Origin: a virus
Taxonomy: Duplodnaviria; Caudoviricetes
Reading direction: 5' to 3' (one strand)
IMG/VR virus record: IMGVR_UViG_3300010362_000060
Span: 1 to 34,733 of that record
DNA length: 34,733 bases
In this document: in pieces, positions 3,313 through 17,832 of the stretch
Layout of the letters: each line of letters starts with the position of its first letter
Position numbering within the stretch: position 1 is the first letter of the stretch
Notes under the pieces: generated by a model
Seen by the model: only the letters and a program-made list of their open reading frames with translations
The model's database searches: none
What the model was told of the DNA's origin: nothing
Position numbers and translations under genes: made by a program

Positions 3313-4758
3313 CTAGCGCCCGTCCGCCGACAGCGTGTACTGGACGTCGCCGTCGTAGTCCTTGACCTCCGTCGCGTCGACGACGCGGCGGACCTCCTGG
3401 CGCACGGTCGCCCCGAGCGCCAGCGAGAGGTTGTCTGGCACGTAGGTGTCGCTGGCCTCTTCCATCAGCCGGAGCTGGTCACGCAGCCCGTTGGCGGCGA
3501 GCACCAACGACTCCGTGTCCAGCGGACCGAGCTTGCCGTGGTTGAGGCTGACGCTGTACCGCACCGCCCGATCGAAGGCCTCCTTGACGAACGCGGGCAT
3601 GTACCCGTCCATCGCCTCGAACACCCGGTCGAAGTTGGTGTCGGGGTCGAGCGCGTCCCCGATCACCCGTCTGGCCAGCTTCTCCACGCCCGGCCGGTCC
3701 ATCGGACCGATGTGGATCACCGCGTCGAGGCGTCCGGGCCGGACCATGCCCTTGTGGATGCGCTCGGCGTGGTTGGTGGTGAGGACGAGCAGCATCTGCA
3801 AGCCCTTGCTGGAGAAGCCGTCGAAGGTGTCGAGCATCCGGTTGACGTCCCGCTCGCCCGCTCCGGCCTTGGTGTCGAGGTCCTCCATGAACAGCACCCC
3901 CGGCTGGTAGATGCGCAGGGTCTGCATCGCGGCGTGGATGTCGTCCCGGCCGGGGCGGCACATCAGGAACGTCCACCCGTTGGCTTCGGCCACCTGTGCC
4001 GTCAGCACCGCGGCGAGGGTCTTGCCCACGCCGTACGGCCCCTCCAGCAGGACGGCCCGTTTGCCCGGCTGGCCCAGGTCGAACAGCACGTCGGCGTGGC
4101 GGATGGGCGACCACACGTTGGCCTCCAACTGCTGCATCGCGTCCTGCGTGTAGACGACGTCGTCCCAGTTCACCGACGTCGTGTCGATGAACTGGAGGTC
4201 CCCGTCGATGGCCTTGCCCTTGTAGATCGACTCGGTCCGCAGGAACTTGTCGATCAACGTGAACAGCCCGTCGATGTGGTCCTTGTACTTGCGCGGGCAC
4301 GTCACGGTGAGCTGGAAGATCTCTCCCAGCTCCTGGTGTCGGGTCGCGCCCAAGTGCAGGATCGTGTTCTTCAGCCCCGGGAAGCGCATCGCCCCCCAGG
4401 GCACCTGGATCGTCTCGTCGATCCCACAGGCCACGTCGATCAGCTGCGGCGGCTCCTTGCCGAAGAAGTGCCGCACCGTGTAGCCCACGGTCCAGCCCGC
4501 CGCCTGCTTGACGGCCTTCATCGTGGCCAGCGCCCCGTCGAACGGACGGAACGGGAACTGCCGCGACACCTGGTATTCGTGCTCCTCGTCCTCGATGCGG
4601 GCGCTGAGGAAGTCCCGGCCTTCCACCATCGACAGGTGGGCCGGGATGACGAACTTCGTCCCGAAGAACGTGACGTCCTCCTCCTTGGTCAGCTTGCCGC
4701 CCAAGATGGCGAGCGCCTCCAAGGCCTCCTCGCGTCTCTCGAGTTCGCTCTTGTTCAT
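3313..4758 (-). CDS. AAA+ ATPase (classical clade)
   Basis: Walker A GPYGVGKT, Walker B LFMEDLD, second region of homology TTNHAERIHKGMVRPGRLD. Confidence 0.92.
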   Translation of the reverse strand: MNKSELERREEALEALAILGGKLTKEEDVTFFGTKFVIPAHLSMVEGRDFLSARIEDEEHEYQVSRQFPFRPFDGALATMKAVKQAAGWTVGYTVRHFFGKEPPQLIDVACGIDETIQVPWGAMRFPGLKNTILHLGATRHQELGEIFQLTVTCPRKYKDHIDGLFTLIDKFLRTESIYKGKAIDGDLQFIDTTSVNWDDVVYTQDAMQQLEANVWSPIRHADVLFDLGQPGKRAVLLEGPYGVGKTLAAVLTAQVAEANGWTFLMCRPGRDDIHAAMQTLRIYQPGVLFMEDLDTKAGAGERDVNRMLDTFDGFSSKGLQMLLVLTTNHAERIHKGMVRPGRLDAVIHIGPMDRPGVEKLARRVIGDALDPDTNFDRVFEAMDGYMPAFVKEAFDRAVRYSVSLNHGKLGPLDTESLVLAANGLRDQLRLMEEASDTYVPDNLSLALGATVRQEVRRVVDATEVKDYDGDVQYTLSADGR

Positions 4759-5147
4759 GTGGTTCCCTTTCTGTTGGGTTTCCGCTGGGTGCGGCTGTAG
4801 GGCTGGCGTGACGCCGGGAGGCTTGGGATGGGCCTCTCGAACGTCTCCAGCGCGTCGGCGGGGAAGCGCAACTGACGCTGTGGCGTCATCACTCCGCCTT
4901 GGAGGATCCCCCGTTTGTGCCAGTCCCGGACGGTGTCGCGGGTGACCCCGAGGGCGCGGGCGATGTCCCTGACGGACAGCCCGTGGTCCCGCTTGCGCGC
5001 CTCTATCGCGCTGAGCGGGATGAAGATGCGGCCCTCGAACTTCTGGCCCGGGAGCTTCCCGGAGTTGACCAGGCCGTGGACTCGTTGTCGGCTTATGCCG
5101 AGCAGCCGGGCGGCGTGATTGACCGACACCAGCTGCTCATCGGGCAC
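4755..5147 (-). CDS. Tandem excisionase/MerR-like HTH DNA-binding protein
   Basis: Two HTH_17-like repeats: SVNHAARLLGISRQRVHGLVNSGKL and SVRDIARALGVTRDTVRDWHKRGIL; GTG start inferred. Confidence 0.8.
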   Translation of the reverse strand: MPDEQLVSVNHAARLLGISRQRVHGLVNSGKLPGQKFEGRIFIPLSAIEARKRDHGLSVRDIARALGVTRDTVRDWHKRGILQGGVMTPQRQLRFPADALETFERPIPSLPASRQPYSRTQRKPNRKGTT

Positions 5148-5194
5148 GACATCTCTCCATGGTGTCTCCTTTCGGTGGGTGGGCAGGCGCGCGT

Positions 5195-6388
5195 TCAGCG
5201 CACGAACGAAGTGGCCGGGTGCATCGGCCCGATCTCGCCGTCGTCGGGGCCCCGCCAGTACGGCTCGATCAGCACCCAGCGATGGTTCAGCGGGTCCATC
5301 TCCCCGTTGGCCATCCGGGCCGGTCCACCCAGGCTCGGGTAGTACTGGTAGCTCCAGTGCTTGCGGACCAGCTGGCGGTACTCCAACGGCACCCCGATGC
5401 CGGTCGGCTTGTAGCCCGGATCGACCACCCGCCGCAGCCGCAGCACGGTGTAGTCGAGCAGCGCCTTGCGCTTGGCCAGTCGTTCCCATCGGCGCAGCTC
5501 GTGACGGTGGGGATGCCCGGCGCGGCGGACGATGATCTGCTGCCACATCAGGCGCATGAACACGTAGAACCAGCGGCGCTGGAACCCGACCGGGTACGGC
5601 ACCGTGCCCGGCACGTATTCGCTTTGCTCGCGCATCGTCCACGGCACGTCGAAGCTCCACGGCAGCACCTCGACCGGGAGGAACCCGTCGCGCACCGTCG
5701 ACGGGTCGAAGATGTCCATCCCCGCCGCCTTGGCGGTGGCGTAGTAGCCCTCGGCGAAGTCCTCCCGGGTGGTGTAGAAGAAGATGCTCACCCCGGCCCG
5801 CACCGTGTCGTCGACCTGGCTGAGGATGTTCGGCTCTCGGCACCACCCGATCGCCCGGATGTGGACCCGCAGCGTCGGGTGGGGCAGACCAGACCTGGGG
5901 TCGAGGTCGGGAAACACGACCGCCCGTTCGAACACGGCGAACCCGTCCTGGGCGAACAGGTCCGTCTCGTGCAACACGTCGGGCACGGCCAGCTCGGCGG
6001 CCTCGTCGATCTCGTCCAGCACCTCCGCCGACACGTAGTGGCTGACCGCCCGGTCCAGCATCTTGTGCTCCCGCACCGCCAGGTGCAGCCCCTGGCGGAT
6101 GGCGGTGTCGTCGCCGGAGAACTGCTCCCGCCCGACGATCGTCTGGCCGTCGGCCAGCCCGCCCATGATGATCGGGTTGCCGTCCGGCCCGACGAAGCCG
6201 TAGCTGGCCCCGAACTGGATCCACGCGTGCAGCCACGGCTTGGACAGCAGATCGCGGGCGATCTGCGCGTTCATCGGGCTGTGCGGCCGGTAGTACTGCT
6301 CGGCCAGAAGCACCTCCCGTTCGGCCTGGGCCCACCGTTGGAGATGGGCGTCGACGGCGGGGCCGATCCCGGCCCACTTGGCGCTCAT
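5195..6388 (-). CDS. Hypothetical phage protein (397 aa)
   Basis: ATGA overlap start; aromatic C-terminal motif VRKHWSYQYYPS..HRWVLIEPYWRGP. Confidence 0.8.
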   Translation of the reverse strand: MSAKWAGIGPAVDAHLQRWAQAEREVLLAEQYYRPHSPMNAQIARDLLSKPWLHAWIQFGASYGFVGPDGNPIIMGGLADGQTIVGREQFSGDDTAIRQGLHLAVREHKMLDRAVSHYVSAEVLDEIDEAAELAVPDVLHETDLFAQDGFAVFERAVVFPDLDPRSGLPHPTLRVHIRAIGWCREPNILSQVDDTVRAGVSIFFYTTREDFAEGYYATAKAAGMDIFDPSTVRDGFLPVEVLPWSFDVPWTMREQSEYVPGTVPYPVGFQRRWFYVFMRLMWQQIIVRRAGHPHRHELRRWERLAKRKALLDYTVLRLRRVVDPGYKPTGIGVPLEYRQLVRKHWSYQYYPSLGGPARMANGEMDPLNHRWVLIEPYWRGPDDGEIGPMHPATSFVR

Positions 6389-8448: not shown

Positions 8449-8623
8449 CCCTCACCTCCTCGTAGACGATGTCCACGGCGTCGCGGAACAAGCCGGTGAG
8501 GGTGGCCGAGTCCCACGAGCGAATCTCCTCGCCCGCCTCGTCCTTGAGCGTCGCCTCCCAGTGGGTGATGTGCCCCTCGTCGAACTCTGCGTACAGGTCG
8601 ATGGCGCAGCGGAAGTCGCTCAT
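8438..8623 (-). CDS. Hypothetical protein (MSDFRCAIDL..., 61 aa)
   Basis: ATGA overlap; acidic. Confidence 0.7.
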   Translation of the reverse strand: MSDFRCAIDLYAEFDEGHITHWEATLKDEAGEEIRSWDSATLTGLFRDAVDIVYEEVRGER

Positions 8624-8925
8624 GGCTTCTTCCCGACCTGCCGGATGGCTTCGGCGAGGACCGCTTGGACGGCCTGCATGAAGCGGTCGTAGCAGTCCTC
8701 GCAGTAGTACTGGCCGTCGTCCGCCTGCCAGGTGGCCTGCCAGAACAGGCCGGACACGACGTTGCCGTGCATGTCCTCGGTCTCGGACAGGACGAACCCG
8801 ATCGACTCGCCGCACTCCGGGTTGGCGCACATGGCCTCGTCCAGCGGCAGCTCGACGGGCGGGTTCGGGTAGCGACCCCCGTCTTCGTCGTAGGTCTCGA
8901 ACTCGATGGGATCGACGGGCCTCAT
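8620..8925 (-). CDS. Acidic Zn-finger-like protein
   Basis: CANPEC...CEDC; ATGA overlap. Confidence 0.75.
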   Translation of the reverse strand: MRPVDPIEFETYDEDGGRYPNPPVELPLDEAMCANPECGESIGFVLSETEDMHGNVVSGLFWQATWQADDGQYYCEDCYDRFMQAVQAVLAEAIRQVGKKP

Positions 8926-9164
8926 GACACCACCTGCCGACAGTGGCTGCACGTGGTCACCCGATCGACGCTGACCAGCTCGTTGGTGTGCGACATGAGC
9001 CAGAACGGCAGCAGCAGCCCCCCGCTGAGGATGGTCAGCATCAGCCACCCGAAGCCGAACTTGCTATGGCGGCGGACGTAGATCGGCGTCGTCACGACAT
9101 AGCGCGGCGCGCACATCCCGCACGCCGGGCACGGCGGGAACACCGGCGCGGGAAGCCCGGTCAT
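8922..9164 (-). CDS. Membrane-associated zinc-ribbon protein (LITAF-like architecture)
   Basis: CPAC - hydrophobic FGFGWLMLTILSGGLLLPFWLM - CSHC; SD GGAGG. Confidence 0.7.
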   Translation of the reverse strand: MTGLPAPVFPPCPACGMCAPRYVVTTPIYVRRHSKFGFGWLMLTILSGGLLLPFWLMSHTNELVSVDRVTTCSHCRQVVS

Positions 9165-9334
9165 GACTCCTCCCGGTGCAAGGTGACCGGAGGCCCCCAC
9201 ACCACGGAGCGGTTGGCCTCCGGGCGGGTGGCCGCGGTCATCATCTGCTCTTCGCCGTAGCGGTTGACGTACCGCTCGACCATCAGCTGGGTTCCGTCGG
9301 GGAAGGTCCCGACGTAAACGATGCGATCGGACAT
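9161..9334 (-). CDS. Hypothetical protein (MSDRIVYVGTF..., 57 aa)
   Basis: SD GAAAGGAA. Confidence 0.75.
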   Translation of the reverse strand: MSDRIVYVGTFPDGTQLMVERYVNRYGEEQMMTAATRPEANRSVVWGPPVTLHREES

Positions 9335-9368
9335 GATGTTTCCTTTCCGTTGCCCGCCGGGTTGGCGG

Positions 9369-9446
9369 GAGTGGACCGGCGGGGAATCGAACCCCGCGCC
9401 AGGAGGAACAGACCAATGAAGTTCCTGGCCCCACCGAGGGCGGCCC
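9369..9446 (-). ncRNA. tRNA-like cloverleaf RNA with an arm antisense to the early-gene start motif
   Basis: GGGCCG/CGGUCC acceptor stem, CCCU-CGGU-GGGG arm, CCAGGA/UCCUGG arm enclosing ACUUCAUUGGUCUGUUCC, GCGGGG-UUCGAUU-CCCCGC T-arm, 3' ACUC. Confidence 0.7.
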
Positions 9447-9463
9447 GTATACGTGCCCAAATG

Positions 9464-9640
9464 CGTCCCACTGATCTGCCGGGGAGCTTTCCCCGCTCCC
9501 GCGGCCGGGGACGAAATCTCGTCCCACTGATCTGCCTACGGCCTGAGCCGTAGCCCCGGGTGGCCCGGGGTCGTCCCACTGATCTGCCGGGCTCCCCAGC
9601 CGGAGCCCGGGGAGGCCATTTCTCGTCCCACTGATCTGCC
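9464..9640. repeat. Four direct repeats of CGTCCCACTGATCTGCC at 52-56-nt period with hairpin-forming spacers
   Basis: Copies start at 9464, 9520, 9572 and 9624; related copies near 12236 and at 13122-13150. Confidence 0.9.
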
Positions 9641-9762
9641 GGGGCCCTCAGCCAGCCTGAGCCCGGCCGGGGAGCCCCGGTCGCCTCCTGCCAGCTCTCA
9701 GCCAGCCAGCCGGGGCCATGAGCCCCGGCCCCGTCCCGTCCTGTGGTGGCCTGGTGGCCTGC

Positions 9763-10059
9763 TCAGTCGGGTCCGTCGTCCTCCCCGAGCCACTCCAGGA
9801 ATCGGCGTGCTCGCCGCTCCCGGGCCGCCCGCTGGTCGGGCTCGTCAGCCGCCGATGCGGCATCCTCGCCCGCTGGTCTGGCCCCACCACCTGATTTCGA
9901 GGTGAGTTGACCTGATCCGGGGCAGACCTCGGTGACCGCTGTCATCCACGGAGAAACCGCGCAGTAGCGACAGATGACATCGTCCCCGTCGCCGACCCAC
10001 GTGTGCGAGTCCGCCCCAGCCGGGTTCTCCGATTGACGCTGGGCGTCTGGGTTGGTCAT
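9763..10059 (-). CDS. Hypothetical protein (H..CxxC..C motif)
   Basis: SD AGAAAGGAA; 98 aa. Confidence 0.7.
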   Translation of the reverse strand: MTNPDAQRQSENPAGADSHTWVGDGDDVICRYCAVSPWMTAVTEVCPGSGQLTSKSGGGARPAGEDAASAADEPDQRAARERRARRFLEWLGEDDGPD

Positions 10060-10125
10060 GGTTTCCTTTCTGTCCCGGGTTCCTGGGCCCGGGATCGTGG
10101 GCGGGGCCGTTGCCCCGCCCGGGTG

Positions 10126-10212
10126 CTACCGCACCAAGGCGACGACGAGCATCAGCCCCAGCGCCCCGATGAGCGCCAGGCGCAGCACCCGCAGCCGTTC
10201 GTGTGGCGTCAT
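10126..10212 (-). CDS. 28-aa single-TM microprotein (MTPHERLRVLRLALIGALGLMLVVALVR)
   Basis: ATGA overlap, GGGAG upstream; not in the ORF track. Confidence 0.55.
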   Translation of the reverse strand: MTPHERLRVLRLALIGALGLMLVVALVR

Positions 10213-10409
10213 TGGCGCGACTCCCTTGCCGCCGCAGCGGCCCGGGAGACGCGGACTTCGAGCCGCTGGATCACGCCCAGCAGCTCCTCGGCGTCCGTGA
10301 CGAGGCGCATGACCTCGTTGCGGACGGCGGTCACCCGCGCCTGGAGCAGCTGGGCTGCGGCGTCGACGCGGGCCAGGATCTGGTCGTCGGTCATGTTGGC
10401 TTGGCTCAT
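10209..10409 (-). CDS. Small coiled-coil protein
   Basis: Start motif GAAAGGAAACAGACCATG; heptad pattern. Confidence 0.75.
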   Translation of the reverse strand: MSQANMTDDQILARVDAAAQLLQARVTAVRNEVMRLVTDAEELLGVIQRLEVRVSRAAAAARESRQ

Positions 10410-10440
10410 GGTCTGTTTCCTTTCGTCCCCCGGGATGGGG

Positions 10441-10474
10441 GAGTGCCCGGGCGAGGGGCGAACCTCGCCCGGGC
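10441..10474 (-). other. 12-bp minihelix element (UUCGCC loop, 3' ACUC)
   Basis: GCCCGGGCGAGG-TTCGCC-CCTCGCCCGGGC-ACTC. Confidence 0.85.
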
Positions 10475-10479
10475 CGTGT

Positions 10480-10746
10480 TCACCCGCGGGTGAACATGAT
10501 CCGGTGGCCGTCTGACATCTCGACGGTCACCTTCCGCACGGTGCGCCCGCGCTGGTCGGTCGCGGTGAACAACGACCCGATCGAGCGATCCTGGCGGTAG
10601 TCGTCCACCTGGTCCACCGAGCGATGCGCCCATTCCAGGTACTCCTGGCGGCGCAGCCGGATGTTCGGCCGTACCGGGACGGCCCGCTTGGTCTTGACCT
10701 TGCGCTTGACCGAGTTGCCCTGCCGGTCACGCCGCGTGCTGGGCAT
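10480..10746 (-). CDS. Basic hypothetical protein (88 aa)
   Basis: ORF ends just before a minihelix element; Lys/Arg-rich N-terminus. Confidence 0.65.
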   Translation of the reverse strand: MPSTRRDRQGNSVKRKVKTKRAVPVRPNIRLRRQEYLEWAHRSVDQVDDYRQDRSIGSLFTATDQRGRTVRKVTVEMSDGHRIMFTRG

Positions 10747-10996
10747 GATCGTCGTGGACCACGGTCACCCGGCATTCGTTGCCGTTGGCCATCGGGAAGG
10801 TGTAGGTGCCGGGGGCGTCGTGTTCGGCGATCAGCATGAACGCCGCCACGTGCGGCGGATGTGGCCCGCCGCCCGCGATCACGACCCGCCCGATCACGCA
10901 CGTGACGTCGAAGCCGGGCATCGTGTCCAGCTCGTCCTCACGCCACGGGCGCTTCACGCCCTTGCCGTTGGTGGTGCGGGGATTGGTGGTGGTCAT
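10727..10996 (-). CDS. Hypothetical protein (89 aa)
   Basis: Start motif GAGGAACCAGACCAATG. Confidence 0.75.
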   Translation of the reverse strand: MTTTNPRTTNGKGVKRPWREDELDTMPGFDVTCVIGRVVIAGGGPHPPHVAAFMLIAEHDAPGTYTFPMANGNECRVTVVHDDHAQHAA

Positions 10997-11030
10997 TGGT
11001 CTGGTTCCTCTCTTCCCCCCACCGTGGGGG

Positions 11031-11064
11031 GAGCGGACGGGGAGCTGGCGAAAGCTCCCCGTCC
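11031..11064 (-). other. 12-bp minihelix element
   Basis: GGACGGGGAGCT-TTCGCC-AGCTCCCCGTCC-GCTC. Confidence 0.85.
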
Positions 11065-11066
11065 CT

Positions 11067-11387
11067 TCAGTCCTCGTGGACGACGGGCAGGCACTCGTCG
11101 ATCGAACGCTCGACGAGCTGCTCCGCCGCCAACACGATCACGCTGGGATTGGCCTCGGGGTCGAGGCTCAACGCGGCGATTTCGAGCTCGATCCATCGCA
11201 TCCCCAACGCGCCCGCGATCCGCTCCAGGGCCCGATGGCTGGGCATCTTGACCCCGTTCTCGATCTCGGACACGTACGGGTACGACAGGTCGGCGTGGTG
11301 GGCCAGTTCCCGTCGACCCATGCGCAACTCGGCGCGCCGGATCGCGATCGCCCGGCCCAGCCGGTCGCTGAAGGTGAGCCCCGTCAT
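11067..11387 (-). CDS. XRE-family HTH transcriptional regulator
   Basis: LGRAIAIRRAELRMGRRELAHHADLSYPYVSEIENGVKMPSHRALERIAGAL is a typical HTH_3 pattern. Confidence 0.88.
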   Translation of the reverse strand: MTGLTFSDRLGRAIAIRRAELRMGRRELAHHADLSYPYVSEIENGVKMPSHRALERIAGALGMRWIELEIAALSLDPEANPSVIVLAAEQLVERSIDECLPVVHED

Positions 11388-11674
11388 GGCAGCTGTTCCA
11401 GCTGGGCCACGCAGCGCTCGCAGTCGCACATCATGTCCCCGATCAACTCGTCGTCCGGGTTGACCAGGGTCACCTGGTACTTGGGCTTCTCGATGGCGTA
11501 CCCCGTGCCGGGGTCCCACCACGCGACGCCTCCGCTCACGCCGAGCCGGTTGTACATGATCCCGCACAGGGTGACGTGGCCGTCGACCAGGTCGACGTCC
11601 ATCACGGTGTCCTCGAGGATCCGGTTCCCGGACTTCAGCACGAAGCGCACCTGGGTGCCGTGCTTCACTCGCAT
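11384..11674 (-). CDS. Hypothetical protein ending in CDCERC
   Basis: Start motif GAAAGGAAACAGACCAATG. Confidence 0.78.
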   Translation of the reverse strand: MRVKHGTQVRFVLKSGNRILEDTVMDVDLVDGHVTLCGIMYNRLGVSGGVAWWDPGTGYAIEKPKYQVTLVNPDDELIGDMMCDCERCVAQLEQLP

Positions 11675-11706
11675 TGGTCTGTTTCCTTTCTCCCCCCTGG
11701 CGGGGG

Positions 11707-11740
11707 GCGTGGACCGGAGCGCGGCGAAACGCTCCGGCCC
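11707..11740 (-). other. 12-bp minihelix element
   Basis: GGGCCGGAGCGT-TTCGCC-GCGCTCCGGTCC-ACGC (two G-U pairs). Confidence 0.85.
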
Positions 11741-11747
11741 CAGGGGA

Positions 11748-12209
11748 CTAGTTGTCCCGGCGCACCGCGACGAGGGCCATCTCGTCGCCGAGGGCCTCGT
11801 AGCAGCGGCAGGCCCAGCGGTCGCGGAATCCCCGCACGTAGCCCTCACGGGTGTCGGGGATCGGCGGCCACCAGTCCTCCTCGGCCATCCACTTGATCGC
11901 CTGGGCGAACGTGAGCGTGGTGGCGTCGGCGCGGCTGGACCCGAGGCGATACGCGATGTACCACTCGTAGTCCAGCTTGACCAGGTCGTGGCAGGTGTCG
12001 TCGCCGAGGAACTCGTTGACGTGCTCGTCGCACACCGTCATCACGTGATCCTGGCCGTCGGCCGGGCACGAGTGGATGATGCGCGCCGTGGCCACGGTCT
12101 TGCACTCGTAGCGGTCGGGCGGTCCGAACTCGGCGCAGCCGGGATCCGGATAGCCCTCCCACACGTAGTCGCACAACGGCATTGCCACGCTGGGCAGATT
12201 GTGGGTCAT
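11748..12209 (-). CDS. Cys-rich hypothetical protein (153 aa)
   Basis: Start motif GAAAGGAACCAGACCATG. Confidence 0.78.
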   Translation of the reverse strand: MTHNLPSVAMPLCDYVWEGYPDPGCAEFGPPDRYECKTVATARIIHSCPADGQDHVMTVCDEHVNEFLGDDTCHDLVKLDYEWYIAYRLGSSRADATTLTFAQAIKWMAEEDWWPPIPDTREGYVRGFRDRWACRCYEALGDEMALVAVRRDN

Positions 12210-12255
12210 GGTCTGGTTCCTTTCCTGAAAGCCCCCCGACTGATCTGCCGGGGGG

Positions 12256-12289
12256 CAGCGCCCGGCCAGGAGGCGAATCCTGACCGGGC
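12256..12289 (-). other. 12-bp minihelix element
   Basis: GCCCGGTCAGGA-TTCGCC-TCCTGGCCGGGC-GCTG. Confidence 0.85.
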
Positions 12290-12324
12290 CGTGGCTCGCG
12301 ATGGACCAGCCAGCCAGCCGGGCC

Positions 12325-12522
12325 TCAGCCCTGGGGGGCCTCGGCCATCTCGTAGCTCCTCATCCGGGTCCAGTAGCGGTCGCCGTCCCGACCCTGGAGC
12401 ATGAACGCCCCGTCGTCGCTGACGACCACCACCCGGCGACCCAGGACGTAGATCGCCCGTATGCCCTGGAAGGTGTCCGGGGCCGCGGCGAGTGCCGCTG
12501 CGGCGGTCTCGTAGTGGTCCAT
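12325..12522 (-). CDS. Hypothetical protein (65 aa)
   Basis: Start motif GAAAGGAAACAGACCAATG. Confidence 0.75.
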   Translation of the reverse strand: MDHYETAAAALAAAPDTFQGIRAIYVLGRRVVVVSDDGAFMLQGRDGDRYWTRMRSYEMAEAPQG

Positions 12523-12558
12523 TGGTCTGTTTCCTTTCTCCCTGGTCACGGTGACCAG

Positions 12559-12593
12559 GAGCGCCCGGACGGGGGGGCGAACCCCATCCGGGC
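12559..12593 (-). other. 12-bp minihelix element
   Basis: GCCCGGATGGGG-TTCGCCC-CCCCGTCCGGGC-GCTC. Confidence 0.85.
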
Positions 12594-12600
12594 CGTGCGG

Positions 12601-13038
12601 TCAAACGACCGGATACGGGCGCACGCGGCGGTACTCCGCCCCGGTGACGATCTCGTAGTCGTCGCCCTCGGGGCGCAGCTGCATCACGCAGTCCGGGGCG
12701 TCGTTGAGGCACCGGACCTCCCACCACCCGAAGTCCCCCTCGCCGGGGGCCTGGATGGCGTACATGAACCCGTCCTCCGCACCGTGGAAGTGCCAGGCGT
12801 CGTCGCCCACCCGATACGCCACCCAGTCCGCTCCGCCCCAGTGGCGAGCGGCGAAGGCGACCGTGGGAGGCGTGTCGTGGCACACCGCCCACCGCCGCCA
12901 CCGGCTGACGTAGACGGGGTCCTGCCGGGCGCGTGCCGTTTGGCGGGCCTGGGGCAGGGTGTCGTCCAGAGGAGCGAGGTCGAAGCACATGCGGCTCAGC
13001 TGGCGCTCGATCGCGTCCTTGCCGTAGCTGTCGGTCAT
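12601..13038 (-). CDS. Hypothetical protein (145 aa)
   Basis: Start motif GAAAGGAAACAGACCAATG. Confidence 0.78.
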   Translation of the reverse strand: MTDSYGKDAIERQLSRMCFDLAPLDDTLPQARQTARARQDPVYVSRWRRWAVCHDTPPTVAFAARHWGGADWVAYRVGDDAWHFHGAEDGFMYAIQAPGEGDFGWWEVRCLNDAPDCVMQLRPEGDDYEIVTGAEYRRVRPYPVV

Positions 13039-13074
13039 TGGTCTGTTTCCTTTCCCCGTCCCCGTTCGGGGGCG

Positions 13075-13108
13075 GAGCGCCCACACGCAGTTCGACCTGC
13101 GAATGGGC
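13075..13108 (-). other. 12-bp minihelix element (variant loop)
   Basis: GCCCATTCGCAG-GTCGAA-CTGCGTGTGGGC-GCTC (one mismatch, one G-U). Confidence 0.75.
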
Positions 13109-13260
13109 CGGACCATTTCTGGTCCCACTGATCTCCCCCACTGATCTGCCGGGGGGCGGCGGGGGGGCTGGCGGCCCGCATCACGTGTGCGTGGCCGGAG
13201 CCAGCCAGCCAGCCAGCCCAGCCCTAGCCCCCAGCCCCCTCCCGTCCGTCTCCGTCCGTC

Positions 13261-13406
13261 CGGGGGTCAGGGGCCCCCCGTGCGGGGTCGTGCCCCCCGG
13301 TCGGGGGTCACGTGCCCCCCGGTGGGGGTCGGGTGCCCCCCCGGTGGGGGTCGGCCCCCCCGTCCGGGGGTCGGGTGCCCCGTGGTCGGGGTACGCCTGC
13401 CCCCCG
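13261..13406. repeat. About seven tandem ~20-nt G-tract/C-tract hairpin repeats
   Basis: Units like cgggggtcacgtgccccccggt and gggggtcgggtgcccccccggt. Confidence 0.8.
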
Positions 13407-13586
13407 AAGTGGGAGTCGTGGCTGGTCAGGGATCCTTTCGTCGGATCGTGCCTGGTCAGGAGCGTGACCGTGCCCCCGCCCCCCGCCCGACCAGGGATGG
13501 GAACGCTCAGGACGCATGGGCGTTGCTCAGCGGACGTCCGGCGGGAGCCCTCCACAGAGGAGGACCCCCGGTCCGTACGTGCTACC

Positions 13587-13925
13587 TCAGAGCGGGCTGC
13601 GGCCCACCCGACCGGCCCACGGCCGTGCCGTTCGCTTCGGCTGCCGGGGGAATGGTCGGGCCTGGCTGCCCCTAATGGGGCGAGGGGCCTGGCGTCCAGC
13701 CGGATCTTTGTCCCGTCCCCTCGGTCCGCCCCTACGGTCGTAAAGGTCGGCGGGGGGCGGGACGGCTGAGGGCCTCCTGAGCAGGCGTGCTGCTAGGGGC
13801 GGTCCGGCGTCGGGAGGGGCGGGGGCGAACGTCCGCTTAGATGCGATTCGCTCCTCCGCCTCACGTCCGTTGCAGATGGTGCACCAGGCCTTGCGGCCCA
13901 GTCCATGAGGACAGTGCTTGCCCAT
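13587..13925 (-). CDS. Hypothetical protein with N-terminal C-H-CxxC motif
   Basis: Start motif GAAGGAACAGACCACCATG; MGKHCPHGLGRKAWCTIC; C-terminal half is low-complexity and uncertain. Confidence 0.6.
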   Translation of the reverse strand: MGKHCPHGLGRKAWCTICNGREAEERIASKRTFAPAPPDAGPPLAARLLRRPSAVPPPADLYDRRGGPRGRDKDPAGRQAPRPIRGSQARPFPRQPKRTARPWAGRVGRSPL

Positions 13926-13958
13926 GGTGGTCTGTTCCTTCCTTCCGCCCGGAGGGCG

Positions 13959-13992
13959 GAGCGCCTGGCCAGGCGGCGAAACCTGGCCAGGC
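13959..13992 (-). other. 12-bp minihelix element
   Basis: GCCTGGCCAGGT-TTCGCC-GCCTGGCCAGGC-GCTC. Confidence 0.85.
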
Positions 13993-13998
13993 CATCTA

Positions 13999-14349
13999 TC
14001 AGTAGTCGCAGTCGATGCCGATGACGCGGTAGTGGTAGACGGAGTTCTTCCACTTCAATGGGCCGCACCCGTAGTCCCGCAAGGTCCGCTCGGCCCACCG
14101 GACGCTCCGGTCGCCACCCCAACTAGGGCGGAGCCACCGAGGAGCGTCCAAACGGCCGATGACCAGGTCCAATCGCTGCGGGGGATCGACGTTCACTCGT
14201 TCACACGTCAGGTGCACTCGAACGATGGACTGCCTCGGTACGAGGTCGTAACATGGTCCGAAGCGTGCACCCTCAGCGTGATCGACTGTTCCGGCGATCG
14301 CGGCGACGGTCGCCCCAAGGGCGAACGCCAGGCGTCGGGTCATCTTCAT
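13999..14349 (-). CDS. Predicted secreted protein (116 aa)
   Basis: MKMTRRLAFALGATVAAIAGTVDHAEG signal-like N-terminus; start motif GGGAACAGACCAATG. Confidence 0.75.
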   Translation of the reverse strand: MKMTRRLAFALGATVAAIAGTVDHAEGARFGPCYDLVPRQSIVRVHLTCERVNVDPPQRLDLVIGRLDAPRWLRPSWGGDRSVRWAERTLRDYGCGPLKWKNSVYHYRVIGIDCDY

Positions 14350-14382
14350 TGGTCTGTTCCCTTCTTCCGTCCCGGCGGGACG

Positions 14383-14416
14383 GAGTGCCCGGATGAGCGG
14401 CGAAACTCATCCGGGC
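14383..14416 (-). other. 12-bp minihelix element
   Basis: GCCCGGATGAGT-TTCGCC-GCTCATCCGGGC-ACTC. Confidence 0.85.
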
Positions 14417-14427
14417 CATTGTTCCGG

Positions 14428-14826
14428 TCAGTACGGCAGGTTGTCCGCCCATCCAACGTGATACGGGCACACGTTGTGCCCCTCGATCACGCAGGTAGCG
14501 GTCCGCTGGCAGCGTCCCCCATAGTTGGGATTGGCGGCCTCGCACTGTCCCTGAGCAGGGGCGACGTCGATATGGTCGACGTACTCGTCCTTCTCAGGGA
14601 GGTTGACGGTCATCCGCAGGTTCGCCAGATTCACGGCGAACTCCATGAAGACGACGCGCTTCACGTCATCTGTCGTGTCGTTCCAAACCTGGCTCCAGGT
14701 AGCCCATGCGTCGTCCGTGGGACTGTCGTTCCACGACTCGGTGAGCATGAGCTTCGCCGCCCGATAGGCCGCGTGGCGGAGGTCATCCTCTGCATGGCGT
14801 CGGGCGAGCTGGTCTGCTGCGTACAT
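14428..14826 (-). CDS. Hypothetical protein with C-terminal Cys/His cluster (132 aa)
   Basis: Start motif GAAAGGGAACAGACCAATG; C..C..C..CPYH. Confidence 0.78.
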   Translation of the reverse strand: MYAADQLARRHAEDDLRHAAYRAAKLMLTESWNDSPTDDAWATWSQVWNDTTDDVKRVVFMEFAVNLANLRMTVNLPEKDEYVDHIDVAPAQGQCEAANPNYGGRCQRTATCVIEGHNVCPYHVGWADNLPY

Positions 14827-14865
14827 TGGTCTGTTCCCTTTCCCCCACCGTTCCCTGACGGTGGG

Positions 14866-14898
14866 TAGTCCCGCCCCCCCCGGATTGGGGAGGGCGGG
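14866..14898 (-). other. 12-bp minihelix element (variant loop)
   Basis: CCCGCCCTCCCC-AATCC-GGGGGGGGCGGG-ACTA. Confidence 0.65.
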
Positions 14899-14924
14899 GG
14901 GCCGCAACTAGCGGCCGATGGCGA

Positions 14925-15626
14925 TCAAGCCGCGGGCTCCGTCACCGGTCCCTCGGCCGCAGCTGAGGGCTCCTCAGCAGGGGCGGGGACCGGCGGCTCC
15001 GGGGCCGTATCCGGCTTGATCTTGGGCTCCGTGGACGACCGGATCTTTCCGGTCGAGGCGGGGGCCGTGGCCGTCCCGGCGGTCGCCTTCCGGCTCCGCT
15101 TGGGCTTCTCATCCGCCCCATTCGAGGCGGACTTCTTCTTGGTATCCGGCGCTGCCGCCGCGGCCAGGGCCTTCTCCACCTTCTTCTGCTGGGCAGCCGT
15201 CAGGTTGACACCTGCCGCATTGATGGTGGTGATTGCCGCCGCCACCTGATCGGTGAGGCTCTTCGCCGCCGTCCCCTTCCGCACGAATGCGGGCTTGGAG
15301 ACGGCCCCCGTCCGCGCCGAATGGGCCCGGACGGCGATCGCGATGAGTTCCGGATGCTGGACGTGGAGGGCGAAGCTCGCCTCCTTCTTCGACGGACGCG
15401 GCGTCAGCTGCATGACGTCGAACACCAGCTCCTGCACCTTCTCGTTCTCGTGGTTGGTGTAGGTCCCGGACGGGTAGCGGAGATCCGGCTGACCCGGATC
15501 CTTCCCTTCCCCATACTGGGCGACGAAGGACTGCCGCGTGAGGCGACCGTTCTTCTTCTCCCATTCCTTGACGAACTCAACGACGTGAGCTGGCGCGGAA
15601 GTAGCGATACCATTGAACTTGGCCAT
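14925..15626 (-). CDS. First early gene; Lys/Ala/Pro-rich C-terminal tail (233 aa)
   Basis: SD GAAAGGAAACATCATG; MAKFNGIATSAP... Confidence 0.8.
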   Translation of the reverse strand: MAKFNGIATSAPAHVVEFVKEWEKKNGRLTRQSFVAQYGEGKDPGQPDLRYPSGTYTNHENEKVQELVFDVMQLTPRPSKKEASFALHVQHPELIAIAVRAHSARTGAVSKPAFVRKGTAAKSLTDQVAAAITTINAAGVNLTAAQQKKVEKALAAAAAPDTKKKSASNGADEKPKRSRKATAGTATAPASTGKIRSSTEPKIKPDTAPEPPVPAPAEEPSAAAEGPVTEPAA

Positions 15627-15639
15627 GATGTTTCCTTTC

Positions 15640-16235
15640 GGGAAGGTGGGGCCGAAGCCCCTGCTCACGGACGGCGGGATTGCCATCCGCTAGTCCCCCT
15701 CCGGGAATTGCGCCCGGACCATTGGAATCAATGGGCCTCTAGGCGGGGGCCCGAAAGGAATGGACGGTCGTCAGGTAAAGCTCCGCACCGCCCGGATGGG
15801 CGAAACGGGTGGCGCTGACCGTTACCGGATGGGGCCTTTCAGCCCGCCCCGGATACCGTCCGCTACCGCCCGATCCCGCATCCGGGAGTGAACTAGCACC
15901 CGTTACGTCCCTTTCGGGATACCCCGTACCCTCGACCCCGTAGGGCCTCAATGCGTGATCGCACGTCATCCGCCAGGTAGCAGATGGGCTAGCCCTCCCG
16001 GACTGGCATCCCCCGGATGGGGGCCGTTAAGCGTTCGGGCTAGGGATTGGTCGATGTGTCGCCGTCCCCTCAGCGGGGGCGATAGCTGACCTAGCTAGTC
16101 GGTCGCCTTACGTGCCGCTAGCCGCGACGCCCGGGGCGGCTGGGGCTCCTGGACCCCTCACCCTTATGGACCCCCCGGGGCCGGTACCGCCCCTGTCGGG
16201 GTCCCGCCCTCAGGGGGGCGGGGGGGCCGGTACGG
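15640..16235 (-). ncRNA. ~600-nt structured non-coding leader or ncRNA
   Basis: No credible ORF; several GAAA/UUCG/UACG tetraloop hairpins on the minus strand; lies downstream of the predicted promoter. Confidence 0.45.
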
Positions 16236-16240
16236 CCCTC

Positions 16241-16269
16241 AGCCTACTGGTCGGTGGTCGGGCCGTCAA
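16241..16269 (-). promoter_or_regulatory. SigA/sigma70-type leftward (early) promoter
   Basis: TTGACG (16269-16264) - 17 nt - TAGGCT (16246-16241). Confidence 0.75.
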
Positions 16270-16431
16270 GCGTTGCGGGGGGGCGGTAGTCGGCGCATCA
16301 TGGCAGAGCGATCGTGGTCGGGCTTTGCCTACCAGCGGGTTTCCGGCGCGCCCGGGGTCAACCGGCGTCAGCTTGCCTCACGTTGCGTCAGGTTCAGGAG
16401 GGCTGCGACAATACCTCACGGTGTGCCAGGG

Positions 16432-16528
16432 CGTATACGGAACGCCATTTGGGGCTGAGGTATACGCATCAGGCCCGTTTTCGGCCCTCATCCGTATACG
16501 GCAGCCCTCTGGAGGCCCAACGTATACG
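16432..16528. promoter_or_regulatory. Four (C/G)GTATACG palindromic sites, candidate operators
   Basis: At 16432, 16459, 16493 and 16521; the last overlaps a TACGCT -10 lying 6 nt before the GTG at 16537. Confidence 0.55.
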
Positions 16529-16536
16529 CTTGGGCT

Positions 16537-16842
16537 GTGCCTACCCCGCTGCGTCATCCGGAGTCCGGCCCGTTGGTCGTGTTGTCCGTCAGGGTCTCCA
16601 CCACCGCCAAGGCAAGGGCTCAAGCAAGGGCCCAAGCTCGCGGCTGCGGCGTGGGCGAACTCATCGAACAGCTCATCGTCACCGGCACCGCTCAAGGCTC
16701 CTCACAAACCAGTGCACAACAGGCCGTCAGCGGGGTTACGAACGTCTGTTCGCACGAGCACACGGTGGTCAACCCGGCCACCAACATCCGCACGTGTCGC
16801 GACTGCGGCGCGCACCGGGGGGCGGGCGGCTGGGTCCAATGA
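16537..16842 (+). CDS. Ribbon-helix-helix-like protein with C-terminal Cys/His motif
   Basis: VVLSVRVSTTAKARAQARAQARGCGVGELIEQLI; CSH...CRDC. Confidence 0.65.
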   Translation: MPTPLRHPESGPLVVLSVRVSTTAKARAQARAQARGCGVGELIEQLIVTGTAQGSSQTSAQQAVSGVTNVCSHEHTVVNPATNIRTCRDCGAHRGAGGWVQ

Positions 16843-17111
16843 GCGACGACGAAGCCATGCCCGTCACGGTCGCGCTCACCCCCCGGCTGACCCGGGCCGT
16901 CGACGGCGTGGCCAAGCGCAAAGGCCAGAACCGCAGCGCCCTGGTGCGGAGCATCCTCGAGGCCGACCCCGACGTCCGCGACGAGCTGCTCGGCTACGAA
17001 TGCGTACACGCATCGTACGACATGATGTTGGGCGGGTTGTGGGTGTGTCGGCGGTGTCACGCGTCGTCCCGCGACGACGGCATGACCTGGCAGCCAACCG
17101 GCGGCAGCTAG
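16839..17111 (+). CDS. CopG/RHH-like protein with C-terminal Cys/His motif
   Basis: VTVALTPRLTRAVDGVAKRKGQNRSALVRSILE; CVH...CRRC; ATGA overlap. Confidence 0.75.
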   Translation: MSDDEAMPVTVALTPRLTRAVDGVAKRKGQNRSALVRSILEADPDVRDELLGYECVHASYDMMLGGLWVCRRCHASSRDDGMTWQPTGGS

Positions 17112-17123
17112 CGTCCGGTTCCT

Positions 17124-17369
17124 ATGCCGCAACCCCACAAGGGACGCCGGGTCAAGCTGACGGTGCGCCTGCCGTACGACCTGGCCGCCGAATGCGCCGT
17201 GCGGGCCAAGGCCCGGCGGTGGAACATGAGCGAGTACATCGGGTGGTGCGTGGAGAACACCCTCAACCCCATCGGTGTGCGGGCCGACGAGCGCCGCGAC
17301 CCCACCCAACAGCACTACGGCAACGCCTACCAGCACGAACGCCGGGTCCGGCAGGCCCAAAGTGGCTGA
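17124..17369 (+). CDS. RHH DNA-binding protein
   Basis: KLTVRLPYDLAAECAVRAKARRWNMSEYIGWCVE. Confidence 0.75.
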   Translation: MPQPHKGRRVKLTVRLPYDLAAECAVRAKARRWNMSEYIGWCVENTLNPIGVRADERRDPTQQHYGNAYQHERRVRQAQSG

Positions 17370-17832
17370 CCCCCGCCCCGGCAACCAGGGCACCGCCGCC
17401 GTCGCCCTGCGGCTGGCGGGGGCCTCCTACGCGGAGATCGCCGACGCCCTGCTGTACGCCAACGCCCGCGAAGCCCGCCACGCCGTCGAAACCACCCTGT
17501 CCCAGAACATCCCCGACGCCAAAGCCCGCGACGTGCTCCGGGCGGAGGAAGCCGGACGCCTGGAGCGGCTGCTGCGCTCCGTGTGGCCCAAAGCCACCGA
17601 CCCCAACCACCCCGAACACCTGCCCGCGGTCAAGACCGCCACCGGGATCATCGACCGGCACATCCGCCTGCACGGATTGGATGCCCCGGCCGAAATCGTC
17701 GTCCACACCCCCACCGCGGCCGAGATCGACCAGTGGGTGGCCAAGGTGACGGCCAGCACCGTGGGCGTCCTGGCCGAACTGGAGGACACCGTGATCGACG
17801 TCGAAGAAGTCACCGATGACCTGGCCGGTTGA
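17362..17832 (+). CDS. Probable terminase small subunit (HTH)
   Basis: AVALRLAGASYAEIADAL HTH and ...RIRLHGLDAP; lies upstream of TerL. Confidence 0.7.
   Translation: MADPRPGNQGTAAVALRLAGASYAEIADALLYANAREARHAVETTLSQNIPDAKARDVLRAEEAGRLERLLRSVWPKATDPNHPEHLPAVKTATGIIDRHIRLHGLDAPAEIVVHTPTAAEIDQWVAKVTASTVGVLAELEDTVIDVEEVTDDLAG

Follow-up and report, generated by a model that had tools for sequence, protein, structure and literature searches.

A 34.7-kb virus record assembled from soil metagenomes (about 69% GC; the whole of this stretch is called the window here) contains, on its minus strand, a predicted 78-nt RNA that is shaped like a tRNA and carries a loop complementary to the translation starts of nine genes. 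Judged by its sequence, the RNA element is real, selected and uncatalogued, and its predicted targets are unusually specific. It is on balance probable that this RNA is processed from a longer transcript and acts in trans, as an antisense RNA that represses the initiation of translation in a block of nine likely early genes, in a manner resembling the phage RNAs C4 and CI.

The head and tail genes of the phage lie on the plus strand, from about 17 kb on. The terminase is 43-50% identical to terminases of Arthrobacter and Curtobacterium phages and 63-69% identical to those of the four closest uncultured relatives. A cluster of small genes runs leftward, beginning near 15.6 kb; because of their position and the gene layout in the relatives, these are likely to be early genes. 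No sigma-70 promoter consensus was found in 8500-17500, and a single shared transcript for the block is therefore an assumption. There was no integrase or antirepressor among the PHROG matches shown for 39 ORFs of this partial 34.7-kb contig, the relatives of which measure 60-65 kb. The stretch that contains the RNA is not an assembly artefact, since a 209-nt contig (runs X4/X5, probably one data set deposited twice) spans 9278-9486 with zero differences at a depth of 2.3. The pieces shown of runs X2 and X3 did not cover the RNA, and no variant letters were listed.

Two further features of the window, and one of a relative, may be mentioned here. ARAGORN reports a tRNA-Arg(TCG) at 32146-32217 on the plus strand, within a long plus-strand ORF, and this call is probably spurious. 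The minus strand of 13130-13500, between genes 13925 and 13038, is GC-rich and poor in ORFs and contains repeats of 41-63 bp (GACCCCC-GGGGGG units); it is a possible origin or structured RNA. About 1 kb of low-complexity repeats rich in GGCAGGC/GGCATGG lies between the early genes of the relative G001 (L127:7950-8900).

The cloverleaf and its predicted pairing with nine translation starts

Does the RNA fold into the cloverleaf that was claimed for it in the preliminary description? The cloverleaf is indeed the MFE fold of 9369-9446 on the minus strand, with -39.3 kcal/mol and a z score of -2.1 (7 of 200 shuffles are equally stable). The acceptor and T stems add up to a helix of 6+6 = 12 bp, and the RNA starts with GGG (Table 1). 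When the RNA is folded together with its flanks (9330-9470), the MFE structure is not the cloverleaf (z 0.55); when it is folded together with the downstream leader, the cloverleaf is retained. The altered MFE structure with 24 nt of 5' flank may reflect a need for 5' processing, or it may be an artefact of folding.

As had been anticipated, ARAGORN gives no tRNA at 9369-9446, and no Rfam family reaches its gathering score for the RNA. The top half of 6+6 bp, the 3-bp D-like arm, the 20-nt loop and the lack of a CCA after the stem all depart from a canonical tRNA. Two other identities were considered and rejected. There is no Rfam match to Y RNA (YrlA). The loop contains words from the loops of both tRNA-Met (UUCAU) and tRNA-Asn (CUGUU), and because neither word is conserved in the homolog from phage G009 that is described below, an origin from these tRNAs is not claimed.

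The antisense loop is largely unpaired in the 78-nt RNA, also with the downstream leader attached, and its complementarity is one contiguous stretch in one arm. The longest match on record, a 17/17-nt complement between 9405-9421 and the start of gene 14349 (14344-14360), was reproduced, and so were the match lengths given for 14826, 13038, 12522, 11674 and 10996. The matches at 13925, 10409 and 12209, described before only as partial, could be given lengths of 12, 9 and 7 nt. All of these targets are encoded 1-5.4 kb upstream of the RNA. The distribution of CAGACCA on the minus strand was also as described: it is confined to 9880-14833, and there is none below 9.3 kb. The starts at 15626 and 10059, which belong to the same cluster and lie upstream, lack the motif. 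The anti-Shine-Dalgarno (anti-SD) core CCUCCU that had been noted is present in the RNA, but part of it sits inside the stem of the arm.

How specific is the predicted pairing? Allowing at most one mismatch, CAGACCAATG has 8 matches against a shuffle mean of 1.43, and none of 100 shuffles reaches 8. The ranking of targets proposed earlier was carried out on 267 SD-like starts from both strands, and block genes make up seven of the top eight non-self duplex partners; the remaining site is the plus-strand start at 8496, while 10409 and 12209 rank 14th and 17th. The mean duplex energy is -24.5 kcal/mol on the nine CAGACC block starts versus -13.1 on nine other starts of the same strand. Matches of at least 9 nt occur at 9 of 95 starts; when the RNA interior was shuffled 20000 times, 7 shuffles did as well. 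Net of opening costs, the block mean is -11.9 versus -2.7 +/- 1.2 for shuffled loops (0 of 200 as good). Two starts outside the block, 15626 (-8.9 net) and 5159 (-7.1), are bound about as well as the weakest block genes. The predicted complexes of the RNA with its targets partially open the acceptor stem. The start directly downstream of the RNA, 9335, has a net pairing of 0.0; its ORF encodes 57 aa with a GC3 of 0.46 and is doubtful as a gene.

The DNA beside the RNA carries repeated motifs that may give it a control of its own. The CGTATAC(G) palindrome at its 5' end has four more copies at 16432-16528, in a divergent control region, and it occurs also at 25508 and 27295. The small ORFs that adjoin the copies in the control region show a weak signal (E 0.08) for a ribbon-helix-helix fold. 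It is kept in the divergent control region of G009, G007 and L019 and is absent beside the G009 RNA; it is a possible operator. The four upstream repeats are 13 bp long, and further copies of GCAGATCAGTGGG at 12236, 13124 and 13137 (12236-12248 and 13124-13149) bring the total to 7 matches against a shuffle mean of 1.26. Each cluster of these repeats is preceded by GGCTGGCTGG runs. Exact copies of GCAGATCAGTGGG were found in none of 5 relatives, and the repeats do not lie beside the G009 RNA. They are candidates for an operator, a promoter element or a site where a protein binds RNA.

Table 1. Coordinates of the predicted RNA, of the repeats next to it and of the leaders of the nine target genes; lengths in nt after a gene name refer to the match with the antisense loop
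Feature	Position	Strand	Basis or detail
tRNA-shaped RNA, 78 nt	9369-9446	-	MFE fold; homolog G009 6136-6207
Acceptor stem, 6 bp, has G3-U70	9441-9446/9373-9378	-	fold
D-like arm, 3 bp, CCUCGGUGG	9430-9440	-	fold
Antisense arm	9399-9428	-	fold
Antisense loop, 20 nt	9404-9423	-	core UGUUCCU common to G009
T arm, 6-bp stem, UUCGAUU loop	9379-9397	-	fold
3' tail ACUC	9369-9372	-	fold
Second hairpin, SD and ATG directly 3' of the RNA	9335-9368	-	layout as in target leaders
CGTATACG palindrome abutting the 5' end of the RNA	9446-9453	.	motif: 13 strand matches vs 0.48 expected
Four GCAGATCAGTGGG repeats upstream of the RNA, hairpins between	9467, 9523, 9575, 9627 (9467-9639)	-	spacing 56, 52, 52
Leader of gene 14349 (17 nt), best target	14344-14416	-	12-bp helix, UUCGCC loop, ACUC, second hairpin, SD-ACAGACCAAUG
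Leader of gene 14826 (14 nt)	14824-14898	-	12-bp helix, 5-nt loop, ACUA tail, C at +1
Leader of gene 13925 (12 nt)	13923-13992	-	12-bp helix, UUCGCC, GCUC
Leader of gene 13038 (13 nt)	13036-13108	-	12 rungs, one mismatch, GUCGAA loop, GCUC
Leader of gene 12522 (12 nt)	12520-12593	-	12-bp helix, GCUC
Leader of gene 12209 (7 nt exact), weakest target	12207-12289	-	12-bp helix, GCUG; second hairpin holds GCAGATCAGT repeat
Leader of gene 11674 (12 nt)	11672-11740	-	12-bp helix, ACGC
Leader of gene 10996 (11 nt)	10994-11064	-	12-bp helix, GCUC
Leader of gene 10409 (9 nt)	10407-10474	-	12-bp helix, ACUC

Target leaders and the homolog in phage G009

All nine targets are preceded by the same module, which consists of a helix of 12 rungs, an unpaired R-C, a second hairpin and an open SD-spacer-AUG. 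In seven of the leaders, the helix has 12 bp without a mismatch and the loop is UUCGCC(C). Eight combine G+1, 12 rungs and R-C; the leader of 14826 has the 12 bp and AC but C at +1. In eight aligned copies, which were chosen for showing the hairpin and are paralogs within one genome, 11 of the 12 pairs change on both sides and 99% of cells are paired (0 of 500 shuffles). The cloverleaf occupies the slot of the minihelix in these leaders, with a 12-bp top half followed by ACUC, a hairpin and an SD. As for the target genes themselves, an HTH gene (11067-11387) follows gene 11674, the N-terminus of gene 13925 has a homolog upstream of the G009 RNA, and homologs of the gene 10996 protein are found in L019, L021 and L129.

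The 12-bp length is not confined to the window. In GC-rich loci, hairpins lying 20-65 nt before SD starts peak at 12 bp (31 of 156 distinct hairpins, with 8 at 11 bp and 9 at 13 bp). An R-C tail follows 23 of these 31 hairpins versus 6 of 66 hairpins of 9 bp; seven of the 23 are from this window and 16 from other loci. By a looser count, further leaders are present in G001, G002, G004, G005, G007, L019 and G009. Leaders with 12 bp, RC and SD numbered 0 in the stretches from five cultured phages (McProf, Tank, OneinaGillian, Ronaldo and Sunfish), and a scan for the leader pattern returned 12 loci, all of them chance matches.

Which enzyme might act on such a module? RNase P measures the 12-bp length of the acceptor stem plus the T stem, and G+1 is its usual start. 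Hairpins can serve as its substrates, and R73-C74-C75 pairs with a GGU of the enzyme, according to one report (PMC12710915). By extension, the RCUC of the leaders could make the GGU contact with one wobble. With its 12 bp and R-C tail, the cloverleaf RNA has a geometry compatible with a 5' end made by RNase P. The loops of the leaders measure 6-7 nt and mostly lack the T-loop A58, and the tails are RCUC, ACGC or GCUG and not RCCA. The leaders thus have neither the canonical 7-nt T loop nor a 3' RCCA, and cleavage by another nuclease (e.g., RNase Z), or no cleavage at all, is therefore conceivable.

Shrunken or extended tRNA-like elements are also found directly before SD starts, at L274:4099, G008 26637 (minus strand), L097:5450-5505 and L101:1644 and in L140, L167, L197 and L205. 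They are without antisense matches and look like intermediates between a tRNA and a minihelix.

A homolog of the RNA was found in one relative. When the 283 tRNA-like elements of the loci compared, a set that includes 242 ARAGORN tRNAs as a natural control, were ranked by their matches to starts, this RNA came first with 10 starts (adjacent start codons unmerged) and an element in phage G009 came second with three. G009 is a relative with a complete sequence of 64 kb (67-68% in the terminase, 57% in the capsid), and its element is syntenic, following an HTH gene and preceding the g8150 homolog. The G009 RNA retains the D-like arm CCUCGGUGG, the T arm and the loop core UGUUCCU. A comparison by hand indicates that all four helices are kept via four double changes and one single change, and that 6+6 bp are swapped for 7+5 bp, the sum of which is still 12. 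The loop core is unchanged while the flanking stem has changed on both sides in two of its five pairs. The comparison with G009 thus indicates selection on the fold, on the 12-bp length and on the anti-SD core.

The G009 loop is predicted to be unpaired, and its core is complementary to the Shine-Dalgarno motif of that phage. Three starts match it over 9-10 nt, and one of the three follows the G009 RNA directly. These three longest start matches carry AAGGAACAC versus AACAG in this phage, which amounts to one reciprocal change. The target specificity in G009 is weak, as matches at 3 of 155 starts are equalled by 970 of 20000 shuffles (p about 0.05); the AUG is left uncovered, and a non-start site ties with the best start. 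On G009 starts, the longer loop of this phage does no worse than G009's own loop (-14.9 versus -13.2). The covariation between arm and start motif that the preliminary description looked for is thus found in part: the homolog keeps the cloverleaf and the anti-SD core, but it has no long match that covers the AUG. Because the G009 matches are weak, the long AUG-covering address is known from one phage only.

Further searches gave no third member among the matches listed. Among the relatives, no tRNA-shaped antisense RNA was found in G001-G005 and G007, which carry leaders and several of which are fragments. A blastn search with 9300-9700 against 50,697 phage records gave no match, and the G009 RNA matched only the T arms of tRNA and tmRNA. 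A viral scan for the antisense word together with a T loop gave 17 loci and no homolog, and a scan with ORF 4755-6377 gave no loci. The combination of D arm and T loop, scanned for in 43 of 64 parts of the viral sequences (at least 120 loci, 80 of them with flanks) and in genome sequences (89 loci), had at least 210 matches, at least 190 of them distinct, and among the matches listed only G009 was recovered. The antisense match is absent from L303, L305, L308, L343, L370 and L371. A model built from the two sequences, the T arms of which align imperfectly, found only its training sequences in 82 sources (1.38 Mb).

Several other elements deserve mention. A conserved non-coding region of 350-400 nt (L021:2880-3240 and L019:1300-1720, minus strand) starts with a compensated 12-bp UUCGUAG helix and ACAU; beside a long hairpin it exposes CAGGUUCCUUAGCA, which is complementary to the AAGGAACC motif of L019 and L021. 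A long intergenic hairpin in G007, at about 43710 on the minus strand, has a 13-nt loop UCUCGUUCCUUUC that is complementary to the GAAAGGAAC motif of that phage. In Curtobacterium phage Sunfish, an annotated 'tRNA-Asn + intron' at 63127-63219 (L504:13128-13220) is a tRNA-like element with an extended arm that ends in a GUUCC loop. It lies among the first leftward genes, before an SD, has no long target and is present in no other record.

Proposed mechanism and rival explanations

In the proposed mechanism, the RNA would be transcribed together with the likely early genes. The long early transcript would be cut into gene-sized mRNAs, each with a protective hairpin at its 5' end and a single-stranded SD-AUG, because RNase P would recognise the 12-bp acceptor-plus-T helix by its ruler and the R-C tail by the R73/C74 contact (described in PMC12710915). 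The cloverleaf would be cut like the leaders, since it is the same module plus two extra arms, and its 5' end would in this way be released by the RNase P of the host. Its 3' end might be trimmed, or the RNA might stay as the 5' head of the downstream mRNA. Once released, the RNA would pair in trans with the SD-spacer-AUG of the nine genes and block ribosome loading. Encoded downstream of its targets and folded stably enough to build up, the RNA would dampen expression of the block at a later stage of infection; the timing is the weakest step. The results support the original interpretation in part, namely as to tRNA mimicry kept by selection, an accessible loop, predicted specific pairing with nine genes, RNase P-type geometry in the leaders and an improbable plus-strand ORF; the covariation with the one homolog, which has no long match, is modest.

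The main rival to an antisense repressor is a general anti-Shine-Dalgarno decoy, in which the scaffold would display a core resembling the 3' end of 16S rRNA and damp many phage and host mRNAs, the long match being a local extension. G009 and this RNA share only UGUUCCU, the complement of the family-wide AGGAAC(A), and the G009 loop pairs over 7-10 nt and with similar energy with all 13 AAGGAAC starts listed. The RNA of this phage contains CCUCCU as well, and the cultured relative Sunfish has its GUUCC in the extended loop of a tRNA-like element that lacks a long target. However, predicted binding to the nine CAGACC starts exceeds that to nine others with similar SDs by about 11 kcal/mol; seven of these others reach only 0 to -3.1 net, and CCUCCU lies partly within the stem of the arm. 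A decoy fits G009 better than this phage, and for the RNA described here it is rather unlikely. It is improbable, too, that the cloverleaf is only a processing signal, i.e., the RNase P site of the downstream mRNA, with an arm that arose as an inverted start region by leader recombination and has no regulatory effect. In its favour, the cloverleaf takes exactly the place of the minihelix in the order helix, RCUC, hairpin and SD seen in the other leaders, duplication of the leaders is evident, and tRNA-like leader elements without antisense arms occur in L097, L101, L108, L308, G008 and at G009 4099. Against this stand the match, which is limited to the open loop, and the G009 loop core, which is identical although two of the five surrounding stem pairs have changed on both sides; moreover, 17 nt complementary to an RBS that is highly expressed would be unlikely to persist if they were neutral.

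The same sites might also be paired with a different outcome, such as RNA decay, premature termination or early action, instead of a delayed brake on translation. In satellite phage P4, pairing of the CI RNA leads to termination of transcription (PMC4825925), and the palindrome and four repeats upstream of the RNA could supply a regulated promoter of its own. Yet the paired region is precisely the SD-spacer-AUG, and between the targets and the RNA encoded downstream of them lie 1-5.4 kb; these outcomes have little probability. Could the real feature instead be the plus-strand ORF 9416-9553 (45 aa), so that the complementarity merely reflects a start motif on the opposite strand? A perfect AGGAGG does lie 7 nt before its ATG. 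But the ORF has no Pfam match and no tblastn match in the loci compared, it runs through repeats, and its GC3 of 0.67 is below that of the nine targets (0.73-0.96). On the opposite strand of G009, the SD-like word is not followed by a start codon, and the conserved fold is on the minus strand. Without a family, a homolog or a G009 counterpart and with its low GC3, the ORF was therefore rejected as very unlikely indeed.

Comparison with known RNAs

To our knowledge, the antisense RNAs with a tRNA-like shape that are known from phages are C4 and CI, each of which controls one operon in an enterobacterial phage. In phages P1 and P7, RNase P cleaves C4, a loop of which covers an RBS; C4 measures about 77 nt, has several stems and a 5' GG end, and carries a variable target sequence on a fixed scaffold (PMC5320573). 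The RNA described here, with 78 nt, a GGG start and a loop that would cover the RBS of its targets, is similar in these respects. However, the Rfam C4 model gave no match with E<=1 in the window or with E<=10 in 9300-9720, and none at the G009 homolog. C4 has a pair of loops, a' and b', for a bipartite target, in contrast to the single contiguous antisense loop here, and it acts on one operon, whereas the nine targets of this RNA have a common start motif and carry 12-bp helices of their own. The present phage is also a high-GC phage related to actinobacteriophages, and no immunity cassette was seen in the partial contig.

The CI RNA of satellite phage P4 is an antisense RNA that is processed from the transcript it regulates (PMC4825925), and the same origin is proposed for this RNA. 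CI pairs with flanking sequences, seqA and seqC, and thereby terminates transcription; the targets of this RNA are 1-5.4 kb away on its upstream side, and the adjacent start at 9335 is unpaired. By analogy, it is proposed that the RNA works like C4 and CI. It belongs to neither family, as it has no model match, one loop and distant multiple targets.

Shapes resembling the top half of a tRNA, or hairpins, mark cuts in several other transcripts, as in mascRNA, the tRNA punctuation of mitochondrial transcripts and the RNase III sites of T7. The leaders resemble these RNase P minihelices and related signals in that a shape would mark the cuts in a long transcript; they differ in standing before individual phage genes and in ending with RCUC and not CCA. 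There is also a likeness to tmRNA, since the tmRNA model can be aligned with the G009 homolog over its whole length (E 1.7e-7) and this RNA has G3-U70 and A73. The score is, however, 22.5 bits versus a gathering score of 47, no tag frame, pseudoknots or mRNA-like domain is present, and G009 has G3-C70. A tmRNA is thus at most a possible origin of the scaffold.

In the literature searched, which left most subscription papers, including the original work on C4 and CI, outside, no description was found of such an RNA or of phage early operons punctuated by RNase P. What appears to be new, from sequence comparison, is a predicted tRNA-shaped antisense RNA with a shared-start address in nine genes, set in a repeated leader architecture. 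If the proposal is true, phages can time early genes without a protein regulator, nine of them via one shared start motif, and the RNase P of the host can punctuate phage mRNA. Because its loop could be exchanged, such a compact scaffold could also be of use for silencing genes in actinobacteria.

Cluster K mycobacteriophages contain 11-19 start-associated sequences (SAS), and those of K1 have one reverse copy, the role of which is given as unknown in their description (PMC3203893). In 2024 the role of SAS was still called unknown (PMC11373665). It is tempting to speculate, as a tentative reading, that there is a circuit made of RNA only: the early region would consist of RNase P-cut cassettes with a common start 'address', which would be read by one RNA of the array, derived from a tRNA or tmRNA, that shuts off the block. 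Such a circuit would also account for the SAS of cluster K and offers an idea about these sequences in a phage that can be grown.

The likeness to SAS and ESAS lies in a motif that extends beyond the SD at many non-structural gene starts, in long intergenic gaps and in the one reverse copy (PMC3203893 and PMC11373665). The sequence is a different one, however, and the motif here, SD-ACAGACCAAUG, departs from the 13-bp SAS consensus. ESAS are inverted repeats with promoters and not 12-bp RNA helices, and the reverse SAS of cluster K is in the loop of a plain hairpin and not in a cloverleaf.

In phage Adephagia (JF704105, about 58650-58720; L493:30650-30720), the reverse SAS lies in the gap between genes 92 and 93, in the loop of a long hairpin. 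The region of this gap is present in 155 records. In an alignment of seven (L493-L499, picked down the ranking), compensatory changes preserve the hairpin. Its loop contains CCUCCUAUCC in three of the seven, a similar pyrimidine run in two and an unrelated sequence in two, and is thus anti-SD-like in five of seven. These sequences suggest that the cluster K hairpin is a candidate for an analogous anti-start (anti-SAS) RNA.
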